Shown here piece after piece: positions 578 to 54,690 of a stretch of DNA of 64,000 nt. The notes under the pieces are model-generated. The model ran no database searches. It worked only from the letters and a program-made list of their open reading frames with translations, and was not told where the DNA came from. Source of the stretch: Eledone cirrhosa (Eukaryota); assembly GCA_964016885.1 (NCBI GenBank), contig OZ024752.1:26040001-26104000 (forward strand). The letters run 5' to 3'. The position numbers and the translations under genes are program-made. Every line of letters starts with the position of its first letter. Within the stretch, counting starts at the first letter, position 1.

Positions 578-875
578 AATAATAATAATAATAATAATAA
601 TAATGATTTCATTTATTGGCCACAAGGGCCGACATATAGGAGACAATACAAAAGACTGGGACAGTGGGGTTTTACAGAAAAATCGAGTAAACAATATGAA
701 TAAACATAGTAAAAATAACAAAGTAACAATAAAGTAACAAGAAAATTACAAGAAAACATTCCTCAATAGGGGGGATGACCACCTAGGGTTCGCTCAGGTA
801 CCCCACCAGTCCTGAACGACCCGACGCTTCGAGAGAACCCTGGAGGGCACCCTTCTCCTCTTCAAATTTACCTAC

Positions 876-3533
876 CTACAGCCGCATGACCAGAGTAGGC
901 CCACTCACACGGGCCATTCTCGCCACATTCACCCACCTTTCAGCAAATGTACTGGGGGGCAGCACTTCTCTCTCCACCCTCACCTTCCTTTCCAAGTGAA
1001 ACTTGAAAATGTTGATGAGGGATAGGCCAAAGAGAAAAGTGTCTGTCTTCAGTCCTTTCAACCTCGTCCACCATACAACCTCTTTCGCTACTGCCACCAG
1101 ACAGAGGAAAATTGCCTGCCCTTCCTGGCCAAAAGAAGGCGGCGGTTCAATCTTCACTATGGACTCGGCCGATAGCCGGATCCGTTCTACACGCGACAAC
1201 AGCTGTTCAACATAACTCCACAAGTCAGTAATGCACGGACACTGGACGAGTACGTGCAGAACGGTTTCGTCGCTCTGCGCGCATCTCGAGCAGGTCCGTC
1301 TGACAGCACTTCCGTGCCTGTAGAGTTTATCTCGAACCGGTAGTGCCCCCCGGTAGCACTGCCAAGCGAGGGATTTTTGGAAATTATCCATCGTCCTCGG
1401 CTCGAAAGTCCTCCGGTACAGACTGGTTAGTTCGATTTCGTTGACTCCCAGAGCCTCTCCGAGTGCGTCGTCGCACTTTCCCACCACTAATCCTCTATAG
1501 AACTCGAGAGTGGAAGTTCCACTGACCGCATTGCCCTCCTGGTAGAGGGCAGTGAGTGCCTGGTAACATTCCAGATGCCAGTCACCCAGTCTCGGTCTCT
1601 TCTTGACCCAGGACTGCAACTCAGTCAAAGAAACGAGCTGCGGAAAGGCCCGTCTGACAAACGGCGACCACACCTGTTCACCGTTTAGGCAGAATATCTG
1701 GAGATGTCGCAGCCTCAGCGCGTGCCTGCGCATCATTAGCCACGGCATGCACAGCCCTCCACGTAGAGAGTGCTGGCAGCAGATGGACCGCCTCACCAGC
1801 GGAACCTGACCCCTCCACAAGAATTTGAAGAGGAGCCGCTTTAAGATGTCGAGGCGCGAACGGGGGCAAAGGACGACAGTCAGACGGTAGTAGATGACGG
1901 ACGCGATGTACGCGTTCGCCACCTCCGCCCGACCTTTCAGTGATAGCTTCATCCCAGCCCATTTCTGGGTGAGACTGACTACCCTGCTTGTCACCTCGTC
2001 CCAATTCTTATCCACCTAGAGGTCTGGCCCGAACCAAACCCCTAGCAACTTTACCGGTCCGTCCGTCCAGCGCCTAACGACGCTGTTGGACGGCATGGAC
2101 TTGCCTCTCCAGGTGCCGAGTTGCAAGCCCACTGACTTTTCCGGGTTAAGTTTTGCTCCCGTCAACCTTTCATATTCCTCCAATAAGTTGCCGACCACCT
2201 CGATTTCTGAGGTGTCCGACACCATCACGGTGATGTCGTCCGCATAAGCCGACACAGCCTTTCCGCGTCCCGGTTCGAGCGGGATGCCCTGCAACAGCTC
2301 CAGCTTCCGCAGTAAAGGCTCGAGAGTCAATACGTACAGAAGGGAGGAGAGAGGGCACACTTGACGGACCGATCGGGAGACCTGAAACGGTTCCGAGAGG
2401 TGGAGGTTGTCATGTATGGACCTGGTTGGGATTGCGCAAGTTTGCGCCTCCCCAACCAAATCCCCGACGACAAGCGCCAACCTCTTCGCAAACACCCTGG
2501 CCAAAATCTTAAACTCTGTGTTGAGCAGAGTTATGGGCCTGAAATTGTCTAATGTGTCCCTCTTGTTCTCGTCTTTCCTTATCAGCGTCACTACGCCCCG
2601 GCTCACAGAACTGGGAATACTCCCGTTTTGCTGCCAGTTGCAGTAGAGCGCTTCGAGGAGATTGGAGAACAAGTCTGGCATATTTACGTAAAGCTCGTAG
2701 GGCAGACCATCCAAACCGGGTGACTTGCGCCTCATGTAGCCTACAAGGGCATCCTGAATCTCGGCTGAAGTAATTGGCCTTTCGCAGCGCTCAGCGTCAG
2801 CCGTCGAGAGTTGCGGCAAGCCATCGAGGTACGGACTGAAGTCCGCCACCATCTCTGAGCCGCCACTTCCCCCGAACAACCGAGCAAAATGTTGGCTAAA
2901 GGCCTCACACATCCTCTTGGAATCGTTCAGCTCGAGTCCGTCAGAGACCTAATCGTGGTGAGCCCAGGTCCACACTGGCGCATTAGGGAAATCTAGTCGG
3001 TACCTGTCAGACAGTTGGAACTGGCTGATCAGGTTCTTGAGGCTTTTGCATCCCCCGCTCCTATCGGATAATCCCACACAGTCCCAGCGTGCGTCTAAGA
3101 TGCCGTTCCAGTCCCCCGCTAACAGTAAAGGGCGAGACGTACCCAGAAAGGCTTCCAGGCGTCTAAAGAAGTCCGGCCGTCCTGCCCCAGTAGGAGCATA
3201 GACGGCCACCAGTCTAAAGGCACCACCTTCATTATTGTTCACGTCCAGGACCACCAACTTCCCGTCCGGGTCCCGGAAGATCGACCTTACATCGAGATCC
3301 AGGTCTTTCCTAAACAGCACTGCCACCCCGCCTCCCATTCCCGGCTGGCTAACAGATGCAAAGATTTGATAGTCGTTGAAAATGGGGGCTAGTGCGCACG
3401 TGTCCGAAATCCTGGTCTCGCTGACTGCAATTACATCCATTTCTATAGACCTGAGGTCGTTGAGCAGGTGACCCTGCTTCCAAGACGATCTCAGGCCTCG
3501 AACATTTAAACATCCTACTCTTAATACGGCCAT
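876..3533 (-). pseudogene. Tx1 ORF2 (APE endonuclease-reverse transcriptase), disrupted
   Basis: Fragments 2949-3533 (MAVLRVGCLNVRG, SET, GDWN), 2016-2912 (SPGLDG, FRPITLLN, YADD) and 876-2015 (CSRC...ETVLHVLVQC). It has in-frame stops and two large deletions relative to the copy at 47272-50690. Confidence 0.9.
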
Positions 3534-3564
3534 GTTGGCAGGTTAAACAGAGAGAGAGGAAGGT

Positions 3565-5528
3565 TTACTTACCTTCCGGGCTCTTGTAAAGGTCGGGTTG
3601 TTCGACCTCCATAGTTAATGGGGTTTCTTTTGGGAACCCCTTTAAAAGTCTTGAAGTGGGTTTTACGTTCGGGGTTCCCACGTCCCGAGGAAAGCTGTAT
3701 CGTATTTCTTTGAATATGTCGAGCAACATTCGTGCCAGAACCAAATCTTCCGGCACGCCAAATGTGCTCGATTTAAACATTTCCCCCTCTTTTTGTATAT
3801 TTTCACTTCGTGCTACGAGGGCCATCAGTTCCTTGCTGGCCCTCCTGACGAGCACGAAGTTTTGTAATTTTTGTTGGTGTGATTTTATTTGTTTGCGTGG
3901 CTGTGGTGGTGATGGTTTTGGTGGTGTTGTTTCGGTTGTATCTGTGTTTGTTGTGAGTGCGGTGTCTGCGGTTTCAGATGTTTGTGTGTATATTTGTTCT
4001 TGTGTCTGTTTCGGTTGTTTGCGTTTGGGGGATTCTGGTGATGGTGATGGTGGTGTTGATGTTGGTGTTATTGGAGAGATGTTTGCGTGGGTGGTGTCTG
4101 CGTTTTTTATTGTGGGTGCTTTTGTGCTTTGTTGAGTTTTTTTGTTGTTTTTTGTGTTTCCTTTTTTGTATTTTGGGGGATTTGGGATTTCCCTCATTTT
4201 CACTACTAGTAGATGAGGGGTCTGTGTCTGTAAGTGTGTCTGTATGTATGTTTAAGGTTTTATTGGTGTGTGTATTTTTGGGGGGAGGGGGAATTTGACA
4301 GTTTTTCTCGTTTCCCCCTTGGGTGGTCAATGTTGGTGGTGGTCTTTCTATTGGTGTTGTTGTTGGTGGTTTTGCCGGTGCAGGTGTTGGTTGTGGTCCT
4401 CGCCCCGGCGTCGGCAGCAGTGGAGCCTTTCGACCCCTTGCCTCTTTCAGCAGTTGAGGGCAGAAGGCTCGCAAATGGGTTTTTTCCCCACAAACAAAAC
4501 ACTGCGGCCTTTTGCCTTCGGTCATAATGTGAATGACAGTCCCATTCTGAAGGCGGATGTGGTCTGGGATTGTCTTCACATTCTCGGGCCTGATCTGGAG
4601 AAGGATCTCCAGGTCAACCTCTGACCAGTCCTCTCTGGCCGTTCTGGTCACTTCTATAGGGACTGCATCCGTCCCCTCCACAATCACACATCCCAGAAGC
4701 CACCACATGTCAAGTCCTGGTGGGATTCTGGGATTTGCGGAGACGGGCCGTTCTTTTTCCCATGTGGGAGGGGTACATTATGACCTTGCTGGTTTTGCAA
4801 GGAGTCATAGCGAGGGCTTCTGACTTGAACAACACCGAAATGGTGCCGTACTGTCTGCTTCTCTCTATGTACTGGGTGTCTTCTCTGATGCACCTCAGCG
4901 CGTCTTCGACATCTTCTTGTGGGATTAACGCTGCCCTTTTGGTTTGTGCTGAGATGCATCTATAATGCACCGTTTTGCGCTCCACTGCCTCAATAGCTTC
5001 TACCGGGACAGTTAAGTTGGCCCAAGTTTGCTCTTGCTTGATGAGCTTCCATGCCTGGGCCAACTTTTCATCTTTGTTTGAGAGGTCCATGTTGAAGCAT
5101 GGCCTCTTTTTTGCTGCTGCCGCAGCGAAAGTGGTCTTGTTTTCGTTGGGGGTGTTGTTGACGTTGTTCTTGTTGGTGTTGTTGTTAGCACTGTCGCTGT
5201 TATCATTGTTGTCTTTGTTGCCACCGTTGTTCTCGGTGCAGTTGGCATTGTTGCTGTTGGTGTTGTCGCTATTTGTTTTCATGTTAGTGGTGTTGATATT
5301 GTTGTTGTATTTGTTATTTTTTTTGTTATCTGTATTTTCGTTGTCGCTGTTACTGTCATTATTTTCAAAATTAGAGTTCTTATTGGTATCATTGGTATCT
5401 TTGTTTACCTTGTTTGTGGTGGTGTTTGTGTTATCAATGTGTGTTAATTTCGCTGGAGCGCTCCTCTCAACTTCTACGTCGTTGTCGCACGACAGCCGAC
5501 ATATTGCTGGGGGGCGTGGCTCAGCCAT
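3565..5528 (-). pseudogene. Tx1 ORF1 (gag-like zinc knuckle protein), frameshifted
   Basis: Three overlapping ORF pieces (4710-5624, 3974-4708, 3565-4203). Asn-rich N-terminus, CX2CX4HX4C knuckle, Pro/Thr-rich linker; homologous to ORF1 at 20142-21977. Confidence 0.85.
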
Positions 5529-16420: not shown

Positions 16421-16436
16421 CTATAGATAGATAGAT

Positions 16437-16476
<40 letters not shown>

Positions 16477-16707
16477 ATTTCTATTTATTTGCCACGAGGG
16501 CACAAAAGAAGGGGACATTTACACAGTGGGGGAGTTTACATAAATCGAGTAAAGAAAAAAGGAATAACAATAATAATATAACAATAAAAAGTCCTCAAAA
16601 GGGAGGGGGCGTGTTGGGGATTGCACATACCCCCGAAAAGTGTGCAACTCTTTTCGCGGGGGAAGCCCAGAGAGGAGGCGCTCCCCCTTTCCTCTTCACT
16701 TCTTCAC

Positions 16708-19700
16708 CTACAGAACAATGTAGAGAGAAGGCCCATTTACACGGGCCATTCTCGCTTCTTTCACCCACCTTTCATAAAACTGTCTGGGACCAAGCACTTC
16801 TCTCTCCATCCTGATTCTTCTTCCGAAGTGGTATCGGAAGAAGTAAACCAGGTGATGGCCGGAGAGAAAGTCACCCGACCTCAGACCTTTCAGGCGCGTC
16901 CACCACACAACCTCTTTCATCATGGCTATTACGCACAGAAAGACCGCCTCTGCTTCATTTCTGAAGGGAGGAGGCGGCTTGATGTTCACCACAGACTCGG
17001 CGGTTAATCGAATCGGCGCCACACGCGACAGCAGTCGTTCGACGTAGCCCCACAGATCGGCAACGCCCGGGCAGTGTACCAGTGCATGCGCAACGGTTTC
17101 CTCGTCGCGCACGCATCTGGGACAGATCTTTTTCGCGGGATCCCTGCCCGGGCGTCCGTGTCTGTAGAGCTTTTCTCGAACGGGCAGAGCCCCCCGGTAA
17201 CACTGCCAGGCTAGGGACCTCTGGAAGTTGTCCATGGGTCCCGGGCCGAAAGTTCTACCGAACAGGCTGGCCAGTTCGTCCTCCTCCATGCCTAGCGACT
17301 CTCCAAGGGTGTCGTCGCCCCTGCTAGCCACCAACCCTCTATAGAATGTCGAGGTGGATTCTCCACTGACAGTCGGGTCCGCTTGCCAGATAGCCGTGAG
17401 CGCCTGGGCACACTCAGTGTGCCAGTTGCCCAGTTTTCTCGGTCTTTGCTTCACCCAGGATTGCAGTTCGGTGAGCGAGACGAGCTGTGGGAAGGCTCGC
17501 CTCACAAACGGGGCCCACACCGGCTGACCGTTGAGGAATACCTGTAGATGCCGTAGCCTCAATGCGTGCCTACGCATCAACAGCCACGGCATACCCAGCC
17601 CTCCTTTCGAAGGGTGCTGGCAGCAGATGGATCTCCTCACCATGGGAGGCCGCTTCTTCCAGAGGAACTGGAAGAGCATGCGTTCCATGATGGTGAGCTT
17701 TTCCTTGGGGCAAGGCACGACGGTCAGGCGGTAGTAGATGACGGACGCTATGTAAGCGTTCGTCACCTCCGCCCGACCTTTCAGTGATAGTTTGCACTTG
17801 GCCCACTTCTGGGTCAGCGCAAACACCCTGCTCGTCACCTCGCCCCAATTCTTCTCCACCTGGAGGTCCGGTCCGAACCAGACCCCGAGCAGCTTCACCG
17901 GGCCCTCTGTCCACCGCCCGACGACACCGTCTAACGGCATCGGTTTGCCCCTCCACGTTCCGAGTTGCAAACCGACTGACTTGTCCTGGTTCAGCTTAGC
18001 CCCCGTCAGCCTTTCGTATTCCTCCAGTAGGGTGGCGATCGCCCCGATTTCCGAGGCGTCCGCCACCATTACTGTTACGTCGTCGGCATAGGCCGAGACC
18101 GCTTTGTGCAATCCCGGTTCCAGGGGTATGCCCCGCAGCAACTCCAACTTCCGCAGCAGTGGCTCGAGAGTCAATACGTACAGAAGGGAGGAGAGGGGGC
18201 ACCCCTGTCTGATGGATCGGGTGATTTGAAACGGCTCCGAGAGGTAGCCGTTTACTTTAATCCTAGAGTAGATGTTGCCACTGTGCATGGCAGAAATCCA
18301 GCCCCTGAAAACGGGTCCGAAGCCCGCCGCCGCTAGCACCGCATCCAGGTAACCATGGTCGACCCTATCGAACGCCTTAGATTGATCCAAGTTGATCAGG
18401 GCCCCACCAAAGCCGGGTTCGTAGCCAACCCTCTCTATGATGTATCGCATGAGGTGGAGGTTGTCGTGAATGGACCTGGACGGGATAGCGCATGTCTGCG
18501 CGTCTCCCACCAAACCACCCACCACAAGCGCCAACCTCTTCGCCAACACCTTGGCCAAAATCTGTAACTCTGCATTCAGCAGAGTTATGGGCCTAAAGTT
18601 ACTTAAGTCGTCCCCCTTGCTCTCGTCCTTCCTCACTAGCGTGACCACGCCCTTGGTCACAGAACAGGGAATTCTCCCGTTCTGTTGCCAGTTGCAGTAG
18701 ACAGCCTCGAGGAGTTCGGAGAACAAGACCGGCATAGCTAAATAAAGTTCGTATGGTAGACCATCGAGACCCGGGGATTTGCGTCTGCTGCATTGGCTGA
18801 GCGCTTCCCCGATTTCAGTGGCTGTGATTGGCCCTTCGCAGCACTCCGCTTCGCCGCTCGAAAGACGCGGTAGACCGTCGAGGTATGGACCGAAGTCCAC
18901 ATCCCCGTCCGGCCCCCCGCCACCTCCGAACAGTCGAGCAAAGTGCCTTTGAAAGGTCTCGCACATTCGCTCAGGTTCAAGGATCACCCGTCCATCCTGG
19001 TCTCGCAAAGACCGAATGGTGGATTTAATCCCACTCTTGGCTTCTGTCACGCGGGCCCAGCTAACAGCTTTGGTCCCCTCGTTTCCTAAAGCACGTATTT
19101 TACTTCGGACAACGCAGCCTTCGTGCTTCGCGTCAAAGAACTGGCTCAATGCCGTTCTCGTCGCTAACACTCTGGCTACGTCTCCGCTCCTAATCGCCTC
19201 TTCTAGTTTATCTGTTAACTCCCTTTCCCTCCTATTTCTATTCGCCGCTAGTTCCTTACTGTAACCTATCGAACTTACTCTAATCTCTCTCTTTAGAGAT
19301 ATCCACCACCTACTGTTGACGATCGCTCCCGTCAACCGCATCTTAACTAAGCTACTAATCCGGTTTCTGTAATCTTTCTTTGTCGGTAAGGACAAGTTCA
19401 TCTTCCAGTAACCGGGACCCTGTCTATGCGTTCTATCAAGGTTGACCACGCAGGTCACTAATTTGTGATCTGAATAGCCAACCATGATCAGTTCTGGACA
19501 ACTAAATACGTCCCTATCCTTACTCCTAACCAAAAACCTATCTAGGTACGATCTAGATTGTCCACTGCGGTTTGCCCAGGTCCAGGTTGGCGCAGTTGGA
19601 CAATCTAGTCGAAATCTATCGACCAGGTCGAATCGATCGAGTAACCCCTTGAGGCTGCTACACCCCCCTCTATCGGGACATGCCCCTGCATAGTCCCAAC

Positions 19701-20136
19701 GCGCATCTAGGATTCCATTCCAGTCCCCCACTAAAAGCAGGGAACGCGACGTTCCTAGAAAAGTCTCCAGACGTTGGAAGAAGTCGGCTCTCTCCGCCCC
19801 GAAGGGAGCATAAAGACCGACCAGTCTGAAAGCCCCGCCTTCACCACCTCCGACGTCCAGCACCAGTAATCGACCCCCCGGGTCCGAGTGAACAATCTGT
19901 ACGTCGAGAGTCAGACGTTTATCCAGCAGTACGGCAACTCCCCCCCCGCCTCCGGGTTGACAGAGAGATGCGTGCATCTCAAAGTCATCGAAGGCGGGCG
20001 CCAGCTGTCTCACGCTGCTGATCCGACTCTCGCAAACAACCATCACATCTATACTTTGTGACCTGAGGTCACTTAGAAGCTTTGCTTGCTTCCAAGCTGA
20101 GCTCAGGCCACGCGCGTTCAAACAGCCAACTCTCAA
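16708..20136 (-). CDS. Tx1 ORF2: APE endonuclease, reverse transcriptase, C-terminal Cys/His motif (1142 aa)
   Basis: CLNARG, GDWN, YLDRF, SDH (APE); SPGLDG, FRPITLLN, DQSKAFD, IRQGCPLS, YADD (RT); CPRC..EETVAHALVHC. No ATG at the start (ATA/TTG). Confidence 0.93.
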   Translation of the reverse strand: MRVGCLNARGLSSAWKQAKLLSDLRSQSIDVMVVCESRISSVRQLAPAFDDFEMHASLCQPGGGGGVAVLLDKRLTLDVQIVHSDPGGRLLVLDVGGGEGGAFRLVGLYAPFGAERADFFQRLETFLGTSRSLLLVGDWNGILDARWDYAGACPDRGGCSSLKGLLDRFDLVDRFRLDCPTAPTWTWANRSGQSRSYLDRFLVRSKDRDVFSCPELIMVGYSDHKLVTCVVNLDRTHRQGPGYWKMNLSLPTKKDYRNRISSLVKMRLTGAIVNSRWWISLKREIRVSSIGYSKELAANRNRRERELTDKLEEAIRSGDVARVLATRTALSQFFDAKHEGCVVRSKIRALGNEGTKAVSWARVTEAKSGIKSTIRSLRDQDGRVILEPERMCETFQRHFARLFGGGGGPDGDVDFGPYLDGLPRLSSGEAECCEGPITATEIGEALSQCSRRKSPGLDGLPYELYLAMPVLFSELLEAVYCNWQQNGRIPCSVTKGVVTLVRKDESKGDDLSNFRPITLLNAELQILAKVLAKRLALVVGGLVGDAQTCAIPSRSIHDNLHLMRYIIERVGYEPGFGGALINLDQSKAFDRVDHGYLDAVLAAAGFGPVFRGWISAMHSGNIYSRIKVNGYLSEPFQITRSIRQGCPLSSLLYVLTLEPLLRKLELLRGIPLEPGLHKAVSAYADDVTVMVADASEIGAIATLLEEYERLTGAKLNQDKSVGLQLGTWRGKPMPLDGVVGRWTEGPVKLLGVWFGPDLQVEKNWGEVTSRVFALTQKWAKCKLSLKGRAEVTNAYIASVIYYRLTVVPCPKEKLTIMERMLFQFLWKKRPPMVRRSICCQHPSKGGLGMPWLLMRRHALRLRHLQVFLNGQPVWAPFVRRAFPQLVSLTELQSWVKQRPRKLGNWHTECAQALTAIWQADPTVSGESTSTFYRGLVASRGDDTLGESLGMEEDELASLFGRTFGPGPMDNFQRSLAWQCYRGALPVREKLYRHGRPGRDPAKKICPRCVRDEETVAHALVHCPGVADLWGYVERLLSRVAPIRLTAESVVNIKPPPPFRNEAEAVFLCVIAMMKEVVWWTRLKGLRSGDFLSGHHLVYFFRYHFGRRIRMEREVLGPRQFYERWVKEARMARVNGPSLYIVL

Positions 20137-20141
20137 TTGAT

Positions 20142-21977
20142 CTATTTTGGTGTTGAAAGTGAAGAAAGAAAAGCACTTACCTCTCCGGGTGGCGTAATTT
20201 CCATGGCATCAGGTGTGTTGGGTGGAGGGATGTTTTGTGGTGGTGTGGGGGTACACGTGTGTGGTGGGGTTGGGGTATTTGGAGTTGTGTCAGGGAGAGG
20301 GGCGGTTATGGGGAAATCTTTCAAGAGGACGCGATTCAACGGTTTTAAACAGGGGGGGCTCACGTCCCGTCTAAATTGTTCTTTTAAGGAACGATAAAGG
20401 TCCAGAGGGACCTTTATCATTTTTAAATGGGTGAAGTTCTCTGTTGAGATAAAGTTTGGCCCTTCGGTCTGCACCATAGGGTTATTGTTTATTAATTTAA
20501 CCAGTTTTTTGTTTTCTTTATTTATATATGTGTATTGCAACGTCTTTTTTTGTGATGCTGTCAATGTTTCGGAGAGGGGAGGCGCAGATTTATTTTTGTT
20601 TGTTGAGGGTGGGGTGTTTTTGATTGGAGTTGGTGTTTGTGTGTGGGTTATTTGTGGTGTGCTGGGTGTGTGTTTTCTTTTTTTTCTTTTAACTTGTCTG
20701 AAGGCTTCTCCTCCTTCTTCTTCAGAAGTTGGGGGAAACTCTTCAGCGCTAGGTGGGAGGGACGTGTTGTGTGGTTGTTTTTTTTTTGCGGGAGGGGTAG
20801 ATTTGTTACTGTTTTTTTTATTATTTGTTTGGAATGGGTTTTGTGGTGGTGGTGGTGGTAATGTTTGTGTCGTGCTTGTGGTTGGTAATGGTGGTGGTGA
20901 TGTTTGTGTTGTGGTTGGTGGTGGTGATTTTTGTGTCGTGCTTGTGTTTGGTGCTGGTGGTGGTGATGTTTGTGTTGTGTTTGTGGTTGGTGGTGTCTGT
21001 ATTTTGTTTGCTGTGTGTGGTATTAGTGTATTTTTGGAGGTGGGTGGTGCTGGTGTACTGTTTGTGGTGGGTGTGGGCAATAGTCCTTTTTGGGGGATAC
21101 GTTTCGGGCAGTTAGCCTTAACGTGTCCCCTTTCCATGCATAAATAGCATGCTGGTCTTCTCCCCTCTACAATTATGTCTATTGGGGTAAGGTCATCCAG
21201 CCAGATGCGATCCGGGATTTGTGCTATTCTTTCGGGCCTCATTTGGACTAGTATGTCGAGGCCCATTCCCAGGAACGCATCTCCAGTTGCCTTCCCCATT
21301 GACAGCATAGTGTCTTCGCCCATATCAATGAAGCCAGCAATAGCCCACCAGAAGTCCATTGTGGGCAGCATTGTTTTTACTTTTATTCTCTGAGTTCTTC
21401 TACCCATGTAGGAGGGATAGAAGCTATATGTTGTCGACGAGAGTGGGCTTAGGGAAAGCTGAACCGCCGTTTCTTTGTCTCTTGTTAGGACCGAAATGCT
21501 GCCATAGAGTCGGTCCTTTCGTATGAAGAGAATATTCTTCATATAGTCTTTTAGGACTAACTCTATTTCCATTTGGCTGGGCTGTGCTGGCTTTCTTGAC
21601 TGGTTTAGTATAGTTCTGTATATAACTGTGTTTTCTGCTCTGGCTTTCTTGAATTCTGGGGGGGAGTTAATGGAAAACATTCCGTTTTCCCCCAAAACAA
21701 TATGTTTCTTTGCTTCGGCCAGTTTTTCTCTGGCGGCAGTTAGGTCAATTGGTGTGTATGTAATGGATTGCTTTGTTTTCTGGGCGAAAGTTGCCCTGTC
21801 GTTATTTGTATTATTTTCTGTTTGTTTGTTTTCTGTTTGCTCATTTTCCTTAACATTTGTTTTTTCATTTTGTTTGTTTGTTTCAATGTCTAATTTTGTT
21901 GTAATTATTTTTTGTTCTTCAGACTTGGGGGGCGTGGCAGAGCTAATGGCAGACATGTCTGCCATCTTTTCCGCCAT
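20142..21977 (-). CDS. Tx1 ORF1: gag-like nucleic acid-binding protein
   Basis: Open frame from ATG (MAEKMAD...). CYLCMERGHVKANC knuckle, Pro/Thr-rich linker, basic KRKKRK motif; homologous to family A ORF1 (YPSYMGRRT vs YPSHMGKRT). Confidence 0.9.
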   Translation of the reverse strand: MAEKMADMSAISSATPPKSEEQKIITTKLDIETNKQNEKTNVKENEQTENKQTENNTNNDRATFAQKTKQSITYTPIDLTAAREKLAEAKKHIVLGENGMFSINSPPEFKKARAENTVIYRTILNQSRKPAQPSQMEIELVLKDYMKNILFIRKDRLYGSISVLTRDKETAVQLSLSPLSSTTYSFYPSYMGRRTQRIKVKTMLPTMDFWWAIAGFIDMGEDTMLSMGKATGDAFLGMGLDILVQMRPERIAQIPDRIWLDDLTPIDIIVEGRRPACYLCMERGHVKANCPKRIPQKGLLPTPTTNSTPAPPTSKNTLIPHTANKIQTPPTTNTTQTSPPPAPNTSTTQKSPPPTTTQTSPPPLPTTSTTQTLPPPPPQNPFQTNNKKNSNKSTPPAKKKQPHNTSLPPSAEEFPPTSEEEGGEAFRQVKRKKRKHTPSTPQITHTQTPTPIKNTPPSTNKNKSAPPLSETLTASQKKTLQYTYINKENKKLVKLINNNPMVQTEGPNFISTENFTHLKMIKVPLDLYRSLKEQFRRDVSPPCLKPLNRVLLKDFPITAPLPDTTPNTPTPPHTCTPTPPQNIPPPNTPDAMEITPPGEVSAFLSSLSTPK

Positions 21978-22178
21978 GCTGCCAAGAAAGAAATTTTTCG
22001 GCAAAAATAGATATTTATTTTACCCCCTAAAAAGGGGGTAAATGCAAAAATGTTTCCCTAAATAACAGGGGTTAGTGTTCCAAATGTGTTGCACTAAAAA
22101 ATTTATCCGGTACTTACAATAGTAAGGGTAAATCCCGATGGAATAGCGGAGCCGATGCGAAGCGTGTCTTACTCTATC

Positions 22179-22220
<42 letters not shown>

Positions 22221-22591
22221 TGTTTCTTTATTAGCCACAGGGGCACAAAAGAAGGGGACAAATACAAAGGGGGAAGTTTACATACAATAAAAACGTGTAA
22301 AATATTATCACAAATGCAATTGAAAAGTTAATTGATTTTCCCCCAATAGGGGGAGACATTTCATATGGGTAACACATACCCCCGAAAAAATGTGCAACCC
22401 TCATCTCCAGGAGTACCAAGAGTTTGTACCCCTTTCCTCTCTTCCTCCTTTTGCTTAACCTACAGGCTGATATAGAGAGAAGGCCCATTCACTCGGGCCA
22501 TTCTCGCCACTTTCACCCACCTTTCATAAAACTTGCTGGGGTACAGCACCTCTCTCTCCATCCTGATTATTCTTCTAAAGTGGTATTTGAA
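22221..22591 (-). mobile_element. 5'-truncated Tx1 copy related to family B, inside (GATA)n
   Basis: Encodes ...FYERWVKVARMARVNGPSLYISL* plus a 3'UTR similar to 16475-16707. GATA repeats on both sides. Confidence 0.88.
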
Positions 22592-22846
22592 GATAGATAG
22601 ATAGATAGTAATAACAAATTGTATCAGATCTATTTTCGGTATAATGTTGTTTTTCTAGATTGTATATATACATATATAGACCGTATACACACACTCGTAT
22701 ATATGTAAATATGTGGGTGTGTTTGTAGGAGCGCAGACACGAGTGCGTATGCATAGGTATGTAAACACATTTAAGTACACACAGACAAATAAACATTCCT
22801 CCAGTATGCATCTATGTATACGTATATGTATGTACAAATCTCCCCC

Positions 22847-30574: not shown

Positions 30575-33500
30575 TCTTTTACCTGTTTCAGCCATCCGGC
30601 TGAGGCCATGCTGGGGCACCGCCCTTGTTGCTACACATTTTATCTCCAGCCTGTATAGGTTGGCCACTGGTGTAGGAGGGAGTTTGTTGCTGCTGCCCTT
30701 AGGTTTCCCTCGTGTCTTGCTGTGGGCTCATCCGGGATCCTGGATAACAAGGTGTCGAGATGTTTCTTAAAGACATCCACCTCCACGTCATGCAAGTCTC
30801 GCAGATGCCTCGGCAGCCTGTTGAAGAGTTGAGGGCCCTTGAATCCCAGGCTATTGCAATACCTGCTCCTTATTCTAGATGTGGAAGACGGGACCTTTGG
30901 CACCACACAGTGACGTCCTGTTCGACGGTTGGTCCAGCTCCCAATGCCAAAGTTTGGTGCTAGTCCCTCCAGGATTTTCCACATGTAGATCACTGCGTAT
31001 CTCTCCCGTCTTCGCTCCAAGGAGTAGAGGTTCAGTTCCTTTAGCCTCTCCCAGTAGCTTGTCTCCCTCATCTTGGCAATCCTCTTGGTGTAGCTTCGCT
31101 GGATTGCCTCAAGCTCCGTGGTTAGTTTGACACTATGGGGTGACCACAGCTGGGAGCAGTAGTCCAGGCGGCTTAGGACAAAAGTCCTCCACAGTGTCAA
31201 CATGGTGTCTCGATCTCTTGTAAGGAAAGTCCTCAAGATCCAGCCAGCGAATCGTCTACATGTTGTCGCCACCTTCATGATGTGTGAAGAAAAAGATGCA
31301 TCATCGCTCATGTCTATGCCCAGGTTTCGTATCGATTTTGACACGGGGATATCGGTCCCTCCTGGTCCTGTGTAGCTGTGTTCCGCTATATTTGTGTTTG
31401 TGTTTATAGGTTTGTATTGTAGGGCTTGGAATTTGCCAGCATTAAACTGCATGCTGTTTTCTTCCGCCCATCTGTATATGGCATCCAGATCCTGCTGTAA
31501 GAGGGCAGCGTCAGCCGGGTTTTTGATTGCCTGTGCTACCTTAGTGTCATCAGCATAGCTAGTGAGGGATGTTGTTGCATGCACCACAGAGGGCATGTCC
31601 GAGAGAGCCACCAAAAACAGTAGTGGTCCCAGGACTGTCCCCTGGGGCACCCCACTTGTTATCGGTGTTTCCCTCGAGAGGGCCCCATTTGCTGCGACTG
31701 CCTGGCTTCTGTCCCTTAGGAAGCCATGCAGCCACTCACCTACTTTTCCAGTTATGCCGAGTCCGTGTAGTTTGTGACATATCATTCCGTGGTCGACCTT
31801 GTCAAAGGCCTTCGCAAAGTCAAGATATATCACGTCTACATGTGAGCTGTCTAGTAGTTGTCTCAGTACCCAGTGGTAGTGATGTAGCAGCTGTGTAAGG
31901 CAGCTTCTTCCTGGGTGGAAGCCATGTTGCGTGCTAGTCAGGCGGTCATTTTCTTCGAGGAAAGTGATTAGTTTCTTTCTGACGACTCGCTCCATGACCT
32001 TACTGATATGCGACGTCAGGGAGACTGGCCTATAGTTCTTGGCCTCCGCTCTACTACCTCCTTTATGGATAGGGCATATTGTGCCTTCTTTCAGCTCCCT
32101 GGGTAGTACACCGCTAGCGAAGGAGCTTCTGAAGAGCATCTTCAGTGGAGTTGCTAAGGCCCGCTTACATATTTTTAGGAGAACTACTGGGAATCCATCA
32201 GGTCCAGCAGCCGAGTCTGTTCTAATTTCATCAATGGCGTACACCACATCCTACTCCGTTTTGTCTATGTGGTTGATGGTTGCCATTTCTTGATGTAGTG
32301 TTGTGGCATCAAAGAACTCCTCTGGCTTCGTTATTTGCATGTGCCTCAGTGGACATGTGAAGACACTTTTGTACTGTTCGTTCAGTATTTCACATATCTC
32401 TTGGGGATTTTCGGTTAATGAACCGTCCGTGTAGAAGAGTGGTCCGATCTTGCAGTGTACTGAGGCAGTTTCTTTTGAAAATTTAAAGAAGGCCTTAGGG
32501 TTTGTTTTAATGTTTTCTATGGCCCTGTTCTCTTTCTTTGCCCTCTCATTCTCATGTGAAAGTTTGAGTGCAATCTCGGTGTCAAGTAGTGCACGTTTCA
32601 AATAGGATTCCTTCTTGTTTTGGTTTTGTTGACTATTCAACTGGTTTGAGAGTTTAGTTCTACGTCTCATAAGGATTTTCCTATCTCTGGGAATAAGATT
32701 TTTGTGTCTGTTTGCCTCTTTCTCCGGGACACACTTTTTGCATATGGTGTGTATCGTTGTCATGAAGTGTTGAAATTGTGTTAGTGTCTTGTGTGGCGAT
32801 GTTTTCACTCCATGTTTGCTTCCGGATTTCACTCTTAATCTTTTTCCAGTTAGCCTTGTAGAAGTTAAGGTTGGATAGCGTCCCGGAGCTTCTTGGTGGT
32901 TTTGTCTCTGTTGGTTCTCTTGGACCACATATCATTAGCTCTACTAAGTTATGATCCGAGAGAATTGTTGGTGTCACCTTTACATTGTGGATGAGCACTT
33001 CGTTGTTTGTAAAACAGAGGTCCAGGACATTTTCGCCTCTTGTTGGGAGGAGTATTGCTTGCTCCATGAACAGCCTGTGTGTGAGGGCCAGCAGGGATTC
33101 CGTCTGTCTCTGTTCTATTGACGTCATTCCAGGGAGGAGGTGGCCCTCAGGCCATTTGACCTTTGGTAGGTTGAAGTCTCCCAGAAGTAGGATGTTGAGA
33201 CCCTGGTCCAGTTTGTCAAGGACCTCTTCTATCCTACTTAGGCTATCCTCAAATTTACCCTCATGACTGGGGGCATCGGGCGGCCGATATGTGACACATA
33301 TTACCGTCTGTAGTTGCTTCATATGTATTATCAGTGTGTCACAGACTGAGTTTGAATGTGTCAACAGTACAATTGGTGTGACATCTTCACGGATATACAG
33401 AGCAACGCCACCACGAGTTCTCTCCTTCCTGTCCGAACGAAATACAGTTTCACCAGGCCCCTGACATTCAGCAGCAGCACTGGTGTGACTTTTGGGGTGC

Positions 33501-34019
33501 CAGTAATGGCTGTCGGTATGACACCTGGTCTGGTGTCAGCGGCGGCCACTCTGGGTCCCTTAACTGCGGTGGTCTCGAGTGCTGGTGTGGATGACCCTGG
33601 CTCTGGAGACGATGCAGCCAGGTCAGCTGTCCCACAATCTTCTCTGCCATCATAAAAAAATTTTCTGATCTGCTGCTGCCATCTGTATCTCGTCGGCATG
33701 TGCGTGCCTTCTCCTTGTTGGTGCAGCACGCGCGACATCAGCATACTTCTGGAGCGGCTTATTTCAGCTTTGGCTGGGGCATGTTGCGCGAGTATGATGG
33801 GCATAGTTCGTTTGAGACCTAGGGTGGGCGAATCTGCATCCCATCCCTGTCTCTCCATGCCAGCATGTCCCGTTCTTGAAAAACTTGCACATTACTTGGG
33901 GTTTTTTGCTCCCAGTGTCTCGGTGCTTTCTGTTCTTTCTTTGATCAGTTGTCCACTGGTCCCTCTGCGCTTGGTTCTCCTTCGGAAGGTGATTTCGCTT
34001 TTCACTTTTGCCCTTAGCT

Positions 34020-45396: not shown

Positions 45397-47019
45397 CAGA
45401 AGATTACAATTACATATGACGACCAAACAGCAAAAAGGAGGCCATGCTTCAACCTCTCAAACAAAGACGAAAAGTTGGCCCAGGCATGGAAGCGCATCAA
45501 GCAAGAGCAAACTTGGGCCAACTTAACTGTCCCGGTAGAAGCTATTGAGGCAGTGGAGCGCAAAACGGTGCATTATAGATGCATCTCAGCACAAACAAAA
45601 CGGGCAGCGTTAATCCCACAAGAAGATATCGAAATCGCGCTGAGGTGCATCAGAGAAAACACCCAGTACATAGAGAGAAGCAGACAGTACAGCACCATTT
45701 CGGTGTTGTTCAAGTCAGAAGCCCTCGCTATGAAACACGCCATGACTCCTTGCAAAACCAGCAAGGTCATAATGTACCCCTCCCACATGGGAAAAAGAAC
45801 GGCCCGTCTCCGCATTCCCAGAATCCCACCAGGACTTGACATGTGGTGGCTTCTGGGATGTGTGATTGTGGAGGGGACGGATACAGTCCCTATAGAAATC
45901 ACCAGGGCGGCCAGAGAGGACTGGTCAGAGGTTGACCTGGAGATCCTTCTCCAGATCCGGCCCGAGTATGTGAAGACAATCCCAGACCATATCCGACTTC
46001 AGAATGGGACTGTCATTCACATTATGACCGAAGGCAAAAGGCCGCAGTGTTTTGTTTGTGGGGAAAAAACCCATTTGCGAGCCTTCTGCCCTCAACTGCT
46101 GAAAGAGGCAAGGGGTCGAAAGGCTCCACTGCTGCCGACGCCGGGGTGAGGACCACAACCAATACCTTCACCGGCAAAACCACCAACAACAACACCAATA
46201 GAAAAAACACCACCAACATTGACCACCCAGGGTGAAACGAGGAAAACTGTCAAATCCCCCCCCCCCCAAATACACACACCAATAAAACCTTAACCATGCA
46301 TACAAACAAACTTACAAACACAGACCCCTCATCTACCAGTAGTGAAGATTAGGGAAATCCAAAATCCCCCAAAATACAAAAAAGGAAACACAAAAAAAAA
46401 CAAAAAAACTCAACAAAGCACAAAAGCACCCACAATAAAAAAACGCAGACACCATCCACGCAAACATCTCTCCAATGACACCAACACCACCATCACCATC
46501 ACCAGAATCCCCCAAACGAAAACAACCGAAACTGACGCAAGAACAAATATACACACAAACATCTGAAACCACAGACATCGCACTCACAACAAACACAGAT
46601 ACAACCGAAACAACACCACCAAAACCATCACCACCACAGCCACGCAAACAAATAAAATCACACCAACAAAACATACAAAACTTTGTGCTCGTCAGGAGGG
46701 CCAACAAGGAACTGATGGCCCTCGTAGCACGAAGTGAAAATATACAAAAAGAGGGGGAAATGTTTAAATCGAGCACATTTCGCGTGCCGGAAGATTTAGT
46801 TCTGGTGCGAATGTCGCTCGACATATTCAAAGAAATACGATACAGCTTTCCTAGGGACGTGGGAACCCCGAACGTAAAACCCACTTCAAGACTTTTAAAG
46901 GGGTTCCCAAAAGAAACCCCACTAACTATGGAGGTCGAACAACCCGACCTTCACAAGAGCCCGGAAGGTAAGTAAACCTTCCTCTCTCTCTCTGTTTAAC
47001 CTGCCAACATGGCCGTATT

Positions 47020-50200: not shown

Positions 50201-50690
50201 GCATTACCGGTTCGAGATAAACTCTACAGGCACGGAAGTGCTGTCAGACGGACCTTCCCGAGAAGCGCGCAGAGCGACGAAACCGTTCTGTACGCACTCG
50301 TCCAGTGTCCGTGCATTACTGACTCGTCCAGTGTCCGTGCATACTGAGTTATGTTGAACAGCTGTTGTCGCGTGTAGAACAGATCCGGCTATCGGCCGAG
50401 TCTATAGTGAAGATCGACCCGCCGCCTTCTTTTGGCCAGGAAGGGCAGGCAATTTTCCTCTGTCTGGTGGCAGTAGCGAAAGAGGTTGTATGGTGGACGA
50501 GGTTGAAAGGACTGAAGACAGCCACTTTTCTCTCCGGCCAATCCCTCATCAACTTTTTCAAGTTTCACTTGGAAAGGAAGGTGAGGGTGGAGAGAGAAGT
50601 GCTGCCCCCATCAGTACATTTGCTGAAAGGTGGGTATATGTGGCGAGAATGACCCGTGTGAGTAGGCCTACTCTGGTCATGCGGCTGTAG
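47272..50690 (+). pseudogene. Tx1 ORF2 (APE-RT), disrupted
   Basis: Pieces 47272-48057, 48199-48543, 48605-49480 (DQSKAFD, QGCP, YADD), 49499-50347 and 50365-50690. Confidence 0.9.
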
Positions 50691-51027
50691 GTAGGTAAAT
50701 TTGAAGAGGAGAGGGGTGCCCTTCCAGGGTTCTCTCGAAGCGTCGGGTCGTTCAGGACTGGTGGGGTACCTGAGCGAACGCTAGGTGGTCATCCCCCCTA
50801 TTGGGGAATGTTTTCTTGTTGTAATTTTCTTGTTACTTTATTGTTACTTTGTTATTGTTACTTTGTTTATTCATATTGTTCACTCGATTTTTCTGTAAAA
50901 CCCCACTGTCCCAGTCTTTTGTATTGTCCCCTATATGTCGGCCCTTGTGGACAATAAATGAAATCATTATTATTATTATTATTATTGTTACTATTATTAT
51001 TACTTTTTTTTTTCTTTTCCCAATTCA

Positions 51028-52441: not shown

Positions 52442-54690
52442 ATGTATGTATGTTCTTCTGGTTTTATAATTTCACAAAGTTTTACCAATAGAGAGAGAGA
52501 GTCGGTTTCTCACATAGACACAAGACTCTCTCATTGGAATTTACACAACAGCAACTAGGTAGATATGTATGTATGCATGTGTAGATATGGATGTTATTGT
52601 ATGTGTGGATGTGTATGTTTTGAGTTTTATGTGTGCATGTGTATATGCTTTGCATCTGTACATGTGTATATGCAGTTATTAGATGCAAAATCTTTGGAAT
52701 GTTTTACATATTTTTACTGTTCCATTAATGGATTGTACTTGTAATTTCCTAACTAGTTGTGTTCTTCATGTTCCTGTGAAGCCTAGCTTCTCAAGATTTG
52801 TATTGAGGCAGTTACTAACGTATCCCAGTGCCCCAATAATCACAGGCATAAATCTGAAAGTGTAATCAGGATGGAGTATCTGCAGATTTCTCATCAATTC
52901 TGCATAAATATTCTCCTTTTCGCTAATCTTTGATATTATATTGGCATCTGCTGGGCAGCTAATTTCCACTACTGTGCATGCTTTCTTCTCCCTGTCCCAT
53001 ATCATAATATCTGGTCTGTTATGCTTGCATTTTATTGGGGTTTTTACTGGAACATTCCACCAGTACTCTTTCATATTATGTACATGGATGTCTTCCACAT
53101 TTCTGTAGCTTTTAATGTGTTTATTATCGGGGTTATCTTTTCTACGGATTGCATTGTACAGTGTTTTGGCCACTACATCATGCCTCATAGGTAGATAGTA
53201 CCGCGATGACATCTTTGGACAGCTGCTGATGACATGGGTGATATCCTCGATGTTAGTTCTGCAGAGTCTGCACTTGTTATCACATCTAGGTGTTTTGCCT
53301 GCATCCCTATCTCTTTTGTGAATCAGGTATTTCGTGTTAATCTCCTGTTCCTGGATTGAAAAAGCGTATCCTTCAAAGTGGGAGCCAATATAGCGGTTGT
53401 TGGTCCAAGATAGAGTACTTTCCTTATCTATATTACTCTCATTCTGGAGCTTCCTGGCAACATATCCATGCATGATTTTTTGCTGATAGGCATGCAGTTT
53501 TTCATCCATGGATTCACTGCGATACTGCTGAGCGACTTCCCTGGGTGTGAGTTTTTGATTATCACACAGGGAATATCTCTCGAAGAGTTCCTTCCCAACT
53601 CTCATGATCTTATCTGTTTCATGCAGATAGACTTGCTCGAGAAACGGGCTCCTATGCTTCGAGGTTCGTAGATGTTGTCGGAGAGATATGATGCGACATT
53701 CAAATGTTGTCTGGACTGATGTTAGGCCTCTGCCCAAGCTTACGTTTCAAGTAAAGGCGTTCTATGTCACTGTTGATGTGGAAGTTTCCGGTGTTGTTTA
53801 GTACTTTTCGAGTTCCAACATCAACTGCTCGGATTTCGTCTATCATCCAATTGGGTATTCCAAACGTTGGTGTTAGGACAGGCACAGCAAACACATTGTG
53901 AGCCACTGTTTTGTTTTGCGCAGAGAGTTCCGATGACCAGTTCTTCCTTAATCGGGTGTAGTATTCCCTGGTTACGCGGTCTTTATTACAGATACCATTA
54001 TAGGATATGTTCTCATCTATCCCCAGGTATCTGTAGCAGTCCTCATCAGATATCAGTGAAACAGTTAGGCCATTGATGACAATGTTGCTAGATTGGGTTG
54101 TTGTTTTTCCCCGCTTTACAGCCATGTATGAGCATTTATCTTGGCCAAACTCCATTCCTATATCCTTTGAGAACGTTGTAACCGGGTCAAGATTTTTCTT
54201 CATCCCATCCATGTTCTTGGCATAGAGTTTCAGATCATCCACAAAGAAATTATGGGTTAAGTTCGTATTCCTGTCCTACTGTGAGCCAATGATGTATCCC
54301 TCATATTTCTTGAGCAGAAAGGACAAGGGGTTTAATGACAAGATGAATAATATCACAGAGAGACTGTCCCCCTGAAATATACCCCTGCAATATTTTATTT
54401 TATCAGTGAAAATAGAGTCCTCCCTCTCTATCTTTAACCTTAGGATAGTAGCCCAAGAAGAAGACAGCCTCTCTATGGCTCTGACAATAATGTCTGGGAC
54501 TTTAGCAAGTTGGAGGGCCTCTATCATCCAAGAGTGGAGAACAGAATCGAATGCTTTCCTGTAGTCCAGCCAGACTGTAGCCATATTCCTCCTAAGTTGT
54601 CGCACCTCCGACATCGCAGTTTTATTGATTAGGAGTTGTTCAACACATCCCCAAACCCCTTTCTTTCCAGCTGTTTGTTCATCTGTGATG
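52442..54690 (-). mobile_element. 5'-truncated R4-clade (RT plus restriction-like endonuclease) LINE with (CATA)n tail
   Basis: WLDYRKAFDSV, GIFQGDSLS, FVDDLKLY, YRYLG, CRLC..IEDITHVISSC, RHD, NRPDI...VEISCP...EKENIY; has frameshifts and stops. Confidence 0.9.

Follow-up and report, generated by a model that had tools for sequence, protein, structure and literature searches.

In the long terminal repeat (LTR) retrotransposons copia and EVD, a conserved U1-type splice donor stands at the end of the structural gene and the acceptor is less conserved (PMC5580714; 10.1101/2023.05.27.542554; here and below, statements from the literature refer to the accessible parts of each source). The copia intron of ∼3 kb spans the enzyme gene and a new stop codon follows right after the junction; in these systems U1 also guards the full-length RNA, and the short RNA is disfavoured for reverse transcription. 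We analysed a 64,000-nucleotide (nt) stretch of the Eledone cirrhosa genome (contig OZ024752.1, positions 26,040,001 to 26,104,000; hereafter the window), in which Tx1-type long interspersed nuclear elements (LINEs), among them a full-length element of a family designated B, carry a comparable arrangement. A U1-type donor motif lies at the end of open reading frame 1 (ORF1), a candidate acceptor coincides with the ORF2 stop codon, and in families A and B joining the two would restore a stop shortly after the junction. Whereas copia and EVD are LTR elements with splicing proven on RNA, the elements described here are bicistronic, non-LTR, equipped with an ORF1 stop of their own, and known from sequence alone. 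They also contain a predicted long-range duplex across ORF2, which is not described for copia or EVD in the accessible parts of the two sources above. If spliced at all, the RNA would behave like that of copia in making gag; the element is not a copia-type member, since it is non-LTR, has two ORFs and lacks a gag-pol polyprotein. We consider it evenly balanced whether ORF2 is an intron gated by this duplex, which most transcripts retain and some lose by splicing, leaving an mRNA with ORF1 only.

A high yield of ORF1 protein (ORF1p) per ORF2p from bicistronic LINE RNA is usually attributed to rare reinitiation, and the ORF1-only LINE product HAL1 (half-L1) forms a genomic non-autonomous family. 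ORF1-only telomeric elements of Drosophila are also genomic non-autonomous families (10.1101/2025.06.09.658640); by comparison with both, no ORF1-only family formed by an ORF2 splice was found among the families searched here. Human L1 RNA contains functional splice sites, some of them conserved, but the introns of the resulting SpIREs lie in the 5′ untranslated region (5′UTR) or run from the 5′UTR into ORF1, and the products, described as dead ends, are found as retrocopies (PMC5860796). The donor described here stands at the ORF1 end instead, would remove ORF2, and has left no retrocopy that we could find. Drosophila CG33298, Atrophin and Nmnat have complementary boxes whose pairing masks a donor or an acceptor and determines the balance of isoforms; these boxes belong to host introns and lie some hundreds of nt apart (PMC2724269), as against one predicted duplex here that spans 3.4 kb, covers both sites and opposes a start codon to a stop codon. 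Neither an ORF1-end donor nor an ORF2-spanning duplex is described for Tx1 elements in the accessible parts of PMC4494074 and PMC13282606. A literature search, with subscription journals mostly outside its coverage, returned no LINE with an ORF2-removing splice or an ORF2-spanning duplex.

A U1-type donor motif at the ORF1 end

Re-reading the window placed GTAAGT where the preliminary description had it, at 20180-20175 (-) in family B and at 3572-3567 (-) and 46968-46973 (+) in the two family A copies. The host genome of 3.0 Gb is rich in related elements: a degenerate pattern for the ORF2 N-terminus matched 11,823 places (25 for a control pattern), and at least 11,800 ORF2 5′ ends of the clade are present. 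A clade of this size made many subfamilies comparable, with ORF2 identities of 66-95% and four-fold-site distances of 0.06-0.77. We took the best GT within an 80-nt window at each ORF1/ORF2 junction as the donor and scored it by the U1 pairing rule. Of 64 junctions, which represent about 20 subfamilies, 62 have GTA(A/G)GT; since near-identical copies are among the 64, the 23 subfamily representatives are the fairer unit. The strict motif G^GTA(A/G)GT (^, cut site) occurred in 21 of these 23 junctions and ten times in 75,615 nt of ORF2 sense strand, and a pairing score of at least 17 was reached by 23/23 junctions compared with 93/920 equal-sized ORF2 windows. In 39 of the 64 junctions the donor was the sole best U1 match of its element.

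Among the 23 representatives, columns -2 to +6 were 96-100% conserved save for +4, which toggles between A and G. Outside the U1 footprint, position -3 and everything from +7 onward vary, the flanks cannot be aligned, and the spacer between donor and ORF2 start ranges from 43 to 70 nt. By comparison, only 83 of 276 four-fold ORF2 columns (30%) were invariant across seven families. The donor also occurs in all three phases relative to ORF1, each of them found with a long intact ORF1. The preliminary description had contrasted phase 1 with phase 0; both exist (phase 1 in the A clade and family M, phase 0 in B), but the commonest in the genome is phase 2, in which the motif reads Arg-stop (C, I, G, K and N, with up to 650 open codons upstream). 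A donor kept in three phases is fixed neither by the protein nor by the stop codon. Together these comparisons strongly support the view that the ORF1 end is under selection to keep a U1-type donor. A second GTAAGT, with a weak exon side and a score of 14, lies in the family B 5′UTR at 22117 (-).

The ORF2 stop and its predicted pairing with the ORF1 end

The sequence CTGTAG^G was confirmed at all four reported ORF2 ends (876-878, 16708-16710 and 22460-22462 on the minus strand, 50688-50690 on the plus strand), and joining donor to acceptor in silico reproduced the reported C-termini, GK becoming GR in family A and VSAFLSSLSTPK becoming VKK in family B. Two details required correction. The copy ending at 22460 had been assigned to family B and is a 5′-truncated member of another subfamily, 74% identical to the B 3′ end. 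The join had been said to delete ORF2 exactly; the removed segment, 3,473 nt long in B, also includes the spacer and the final codons of ORF1. We ranked the AGs of each element by a heuristic score of our own, which was not trained on host introns and does not include the branch point. By this score, among the ranks listed, the stop AG came first in C, J, I, B, B2 and H, and third to sixth in F, G, G2, E1, E2 and A2. The candidate acceptor is the weaker of the two sites.

The reading frame behind the stop follows the donor in part. A stop within three codons past the TAG, in the donor's own phase, was found in 12 of the 18 subfamilies that have a stop AG, compared with 7 of 36 cells for the other phases. 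After the acceptor, five phase-2 subfamilies carry G-TGA/TAA, and the A clade and M, both of phase 1, carry NN-TAG/TGA or reach a stop one codon further on; the frame of the stop moves with the phase of the donor when the C/J/I/D/E1 group is compared with the A and M lineages. The match is suggestive only, because phases in frameshifted copies were assigned by homology and the lineages are related; it gives moderate support to a joining of the donor to the ORF2 stop. A short intron that would instead fuse ORF1 to ORF2 was rejected as a general rule: most families have an in-frame AAG, GAG, CAG or TAG at 39-76 nt, but no one acceptor keeps the frame in all families, and B lacks an in-frame site short of 92 nt.

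The two ends of the putative intron are complementary. In 21/21 representatives the donor-to-AUG spacer is complementary to the final ORF2 codons with their stop and to the 45 nt behind it (predicted energy -22 to -52 kcal/mol; z between -2.1 and -6.7 in comparison with shuffled tails), and in 17 of the 21 the ORF2 stop region is the spacer's best partner among ∼280-326 windows. Adding the final 22 nt of ORF1 to one strand and taking in 75 nt of 3′UTR on the other gives a predicted duplex of 35-58 base pairs (bp) and -48 to -70 kcal/mol, hereafter the clamp, whose strands lie 3.4 kb apart and cover both splice sites. Its residual was -11.3, as against -2.2 to +1.5 in 15 control pairings. Cognate strands had an advantage of 7.1 kcal/mol over non-cognate ones in a permutation test that takes no account of relatedness (p 5e-5). 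In the duplex the AUG region lies opposite the ORF2 stop, and I, B, K and E1 show compensatory changes there; among distinct end pairs, A-2:T0 pairs in 38/39 and A0:T-2 in 39/39. In the chimera L099 (G000:C1:18928148-18934648), whose 5′ half comes from family A and whose 3′ end comes from family K, the clamp strands are mismatched and the duplex reaches only -25.0 kcal/mol instead of -36 to -40. The clamp was present in four of eight minimum free energy (MFE) structures of whole elements. The donor hexamer is fully paired in K, M and C, where the GTAGGT donor of C has a matching complement in the 3′UTR, and partly paired in other families; its structural context in the duplex thus differs between families. 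The clamp does not account for the donor, since its strands drift with compensation while the donor stays fixed.

Local structure was seen at both ends. Over the donor, a local hairpin was significant in 4 of 23 representatives and 9 of 69 controls; composition explains such hairpins, as the two rates are close. The family M spacer (L282, L278) contains a near-perfect complement of its donor that forms a 7-9 bp hairpin (p 0.005 for M) and could compete with the clamp. In the last ORF2 codons a 6-bp hairpin shows few compensatory changes and invariant synonymous positions in 7/7 families; it could be an ORF2p recognition element that a spliced RNA would lack. No ADAR footprint was seen in the clamp among 80 family K copies, at low power: singleton A>G changes affected 2/1,280 and 1/1,290 A sites, compared with 2.4 per 1,000 in ORF2.

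Splicing weighed against other explanations

Under the explanation that we favour, U1 would occupy the ORF1-end donor while ORF2 is transcribed. Once the 3′ end has been made, closure of the clamp would compete with spliceosome assembly at the TAG. A closed clamp would hide donor and acceptor and leave a full-length, exportable, retrotransposition-competent RNA; the spliced fraction would regain an ORF1 stop within three codons and add ORF1p, as copia adds gag. Spliced RNA would rarely be copied back into DNA, because it would have no ORF2 in cis and no ORF2-end hairpin. The donor and duplex features are real and selected, and the splicing function is what we propose from the sequence; we infer every step beyond conservation and complementarity. 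Put as a retrovirus-style switch, in which ORF2 is a true spliceosomal intron and pairing of AUG with stop chooses between full-length and ORF1-only mRNA, the proposal is tentative and falls slightly short of an even balance.

Several results weigh against removal of ORF2 by splicing. On the acceptor side, A, A4, D, M, M2 and N have their stop AG only at ranks 13 to 30, protein coding accounts for part of the pyrimidine tract and a local hairpin contains another part of it, and the phase match is absent in F, G, G2, H, E2 and N. The preliminary description had named TAA stops in sister families as evidence against splicing, and the ORF2 of sister family K does end in TAA, at 68/68 readable ends among 80 copies; TAG is thus not universal. 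In favour of splicing, an AG ∼160 nt further into the 3′UTR ranked first in K and N, and 66 of these 80 K copies have an AG after a T-run at that distance. On the side of the duplex, four of nine chosen sister pairs co-vary strongly, whereas the five closest show no co-variation, and the permutation value ignores relatedness. The clamp is missing from four of the eight whole-element MFE structures, including that of the B copy in the window, where it lies 7.8 kcal/mol above the MFE. The predicted duplex accounts, without splicing, for the pyrimidines of the spacer, for the run of purines that follows the stop and for a large part of TAG-GT. The claim of selection on splicing accordingly divides: selection on the donor is strongly supported, and conservation on the acceptor side has a rival cause in the co-varying duplex.

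Spliced genomic copies were also lacking. A search that covered families A, B, C, K and M and, apart from its GTAY variants, D-H found about 4,000 unspliced junctions and no spliced retrocopy; I, J and N lay outside it. Exact spliced-junction patterns for B and A had 0 genome matches. In D-H, 1,490 copies continue with GTA and 39 variant loci are all unspliced with small changes; family K gave 2,464 unspliced exact matches and 44 variants with no clean splice (38, of which 30 were read and 8 assessed as 19-mers matching neither junction, plus 6 more); the variant matches in M (29), B (2), C (1) and A (2) are mutants or unrelated. One splice-like family K locus (L290, G000:C1:85682522-85685540) was rejected: its 1.7-kb deletion starts 2 nt behind the donor cut and stops at a CAG inside the element, so that the GT is kept, and it has a second deletion. 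The predicted retroposed copies with the exact junction were therefore not recovered in these families, nor was any precisely ORF2-less copy, which leaves the suggested HAL1-like derivatives without support, the more so as the junction would sit only ∼250 nt from the 3′ end. The missing retrocopies say less about splicing itself, since L1 proteins show cis preference (PMC5860796) and copia favours its full-length RNA (10.1101/2023.05.27.542554). A database search gave no homologue for ORF1 proteins ending in the spliced C-terminus.

Contigs from four sequencing runs, whose kind is not on record, were aligned to 16480-21000. No donor-acceptor joint occurred among the 15 joints listed of 109, and in run X4 single contigs span both sites unspliced, which also counts against splicing. 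The higher depth of one X4 ORF1 contig (337, against 13-38 for ORF2 contigs) was set aside, because contig depth cannot rank parts of an element, the kind of the run is not on record and the excess stops short of the donor.

Conservation of the donor but not of the acceptor would equally be expected if U1 bound the donor without productive splicing, guarding nascent RNA from early polyadenylation until the clamp evicts it and frees the RNA for 3′-end formation and export, with the "acceptor" as a by-product of the clamp. The absence of spliced retrocopies, the pairing of the whole donor hexamer with the 3′UTR in K, M and C, and polyadenylation signal (PAS) hexamers within 1.4 kb upstream of the donor in 15/18 subfamilies agree with this account, and in EVD U1 stops premature termination (PMC5580714). 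It does not predict phase-matched stops, however, gives no reason why the donor always precedes the ORF1 stop, and finds just 0-2 PAS hexamers in ORF2, not common to all subfamilies. We consider it rather unlikely.

A second account, which we judge unlikely, is purely translational. The ORF2 AUG would be hidden opposite the ORF2 stop, the donor-like motif would be a termination or protein-binding signal, and folding ORF2 out would bring the ORF1 stop near the poly(A), allowing escape from nonsense-mediated decay (NMD) and controlled reinitiation. Suppression of NMD by fold-back is known, and the AUG region does pair directly with the stop region. SART1 and L1 use reinitiation linked to structure (PMC5972666). 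Family B provides a further argument, as its ORF2 starts with ATA in place of ATG at 20142-20145 (-) in all B loci read (e.g. L001-L016, L069, L079); a genome search for the ATG version gave 0 matches, although many identical copies exist. The changes shared by family B ORF2s (32 synonymous, 20 non-synonymous) nevertheless show purifying selection. With the AUG gone and ORF2 still selected, initiation in B is unconventional; the candidates are a start at a codon other than AUG and a -1 shift at the stop. Against a translational account, the motif is kept out of frame with the ORF1 stop in phases 0 and 1; together with its varied structural context, this suggests that it is read as U1-matching sequence. 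In B, moreover, the ORF1 ribosome would have to unwind the entire clamp before stopping, and yet the clamp is kept.

That ORF2 is simply an ordinary, efficiently used intron giving rise to ORF1-only (HAL1-like) elements is highly improbable: the motifs are present and the stops phase-matched, but no spliced retrocopy stands against the unspliced junctions counted above, family K has TAA, and both sites are buried in a co-varying duplex. We find it barely credible that the motifs are inherited or coding by-products without function at the nucleotide level, even though all subfamilies share one common ancestor (four-fold distance 0.06-0.77) and most distant L1/Tx1 relatives lack the motif, because the donor is invariant over three phases between flanks that cannot be aligned, invariance is seen in only 30% of four-fold columns, and the two duplex strands co-vary. 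Duplex-gated splicing, U1 protection and translational control are not fully exclusive; by analogy with EVD, whose one U1 site does both splicing and protection, they may coexist here. The clade offers a defined, mutable cis-system in which the three can be studied side by side. With its strong donor, each insertion could also capture host transcripts, for which the L1 ORF1 exons of Lyosin are a precedent (PMC12129022).

Elements of the window and their relatives

The window holds one full-length family B element with both ORFs intact, two copies of family A that are damaged, and a fragment from the 3′ end of a third subfamily (Table 1).

Table 1. Positions of the Tx1-type features in the window (core helix of family B taken from the predicted structure)
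Feature	Position	Strand	Remarks
Family B U1-type donor GAG^GTAAGT, phase 0	20175..20183	-	Sole best U1 match of the element's 261 GT sites
Family A donor AAG^GTAAGT, phase 1, copy 1	3567..3575	-	Motif read at position
Family A donor AAG^GTAAGT, copy 2	46965..46973	+	Motif read at position
Family B candidate acceptor: pyrimidine tract, TAG stop, then G	16708..16731	-	Rank 1 of 263 AGs (heuristic)
Family A ORF2 TAG stop / candidate acceptor, copy 1	876..878	-	
Family A ORF2 TAG stop / candidate acceptor, copy 2	50688..50690	+	
Small conserved hairpin, last ORF2 codons, within putative intron	16730..16747	-	alifold, 21 subfamilies
Family B duplex, 5′ strand: ORF1 end, donor, pyrimidine spacer, ORF2 start	20139..20189	-	-54.2 kcal/mol, predicted
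Family B duplex, 3′ strand: last ORF2 codons, stop, purine-rich 3′UTR start	16665..16715	-	
Family A duplex, copy 1	∼3526-3594 with ∼823-884		-59.3 kcal/mol, predicted
Family A duplex, copy 2	∼46946-47016 with ∼50682-50744		-67.2 kcal/mol, predicted
Family B ORF1	20142..21974	-	610 aa; CCHC knuckle; C-terminal half Thr/Pro-rich
Family B ORF2	16708..20145	-	Endonuclease, reverse transcriptase (RT), zf-RVT; starts ATA where sister families use ATG
Family B 3′UTR	16423..16707	-	AATAAA; (ATCT)n tail
5′-truncated copy, non-B subfamily	22182..22593	-	CTGTAG^G at 22462-22460

By the APE endonuclease, RT and C-terminal zinc domain of ORF2 and a separate CCHC ORF1, the elements are L1/Tx1 non-LTR retrotransposons. 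Family B ORF2 matched PF03372 (E 1.8e-11), PF00078 (E 5.4e-24) and, under the curated cut-off of that family, PF13966 (E 2.8e-5). Upstream of it, the ORF1 contains a CX2CX4HX4C motif, read directly, and its TAG stop overlaps the ORF2 start position; a Pfam search with ORF1 gave no match and a database search no homologue. Kibi, Koshi, crocodilian Tx1 elements (PMC4494074) and Octopus vulgaris L1-Tx1 elements (PMC13282606) share the two ORFs with a CCHC ORF1, and the named Tx1 elements of these sources likewise have an endonuclease-RT-zf-RVT ORF2, microsatellite ends and tandem insertion into earlier tails. Family B is flanked by (ATCT)n runs, and A, K and M terminate in (ATT)n. These tails suggest a putative Kibi/Koshi-type Tx1 placement; the closest database relatives, at 38-45%, bear no element names. 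The B copy begins within the (ATCT)n tail of the truncated fragment upstream. Head-to-tail arrays with a spacing of ∼5.7-5.9 kb (e.g. G000:C1:4238339-4255756 and many others) are consistent with insertion into the microsatellite tails of older copies.

More distant L1/Tx1-like sequences mostly lack the arrangement. Of 65 metagenome loci found, the 13 with a readable ORF1/ORF2 junction were scored (best segments 24-30% identical); a donor score of at least 17 was reached in just one, and a top-ranked duplex in 0/8. The arrangement of donor and duplex accordingly looks lineage-specific. The one locus with a donor (L140, 28% identity) has GGG^GTGAGT at its ORF1 stop (1927-1932), no duplex and a TAA ORF2 stop. 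Viral contigs yielded no relatives, and a search for a second Tx1 clade in this genome gave one match. Unrelated RT-type retroelement ORFs lie in the window at 30640-33535 (-), with 21% identity to the Tx1 RT, and at 52766-54275 (-).

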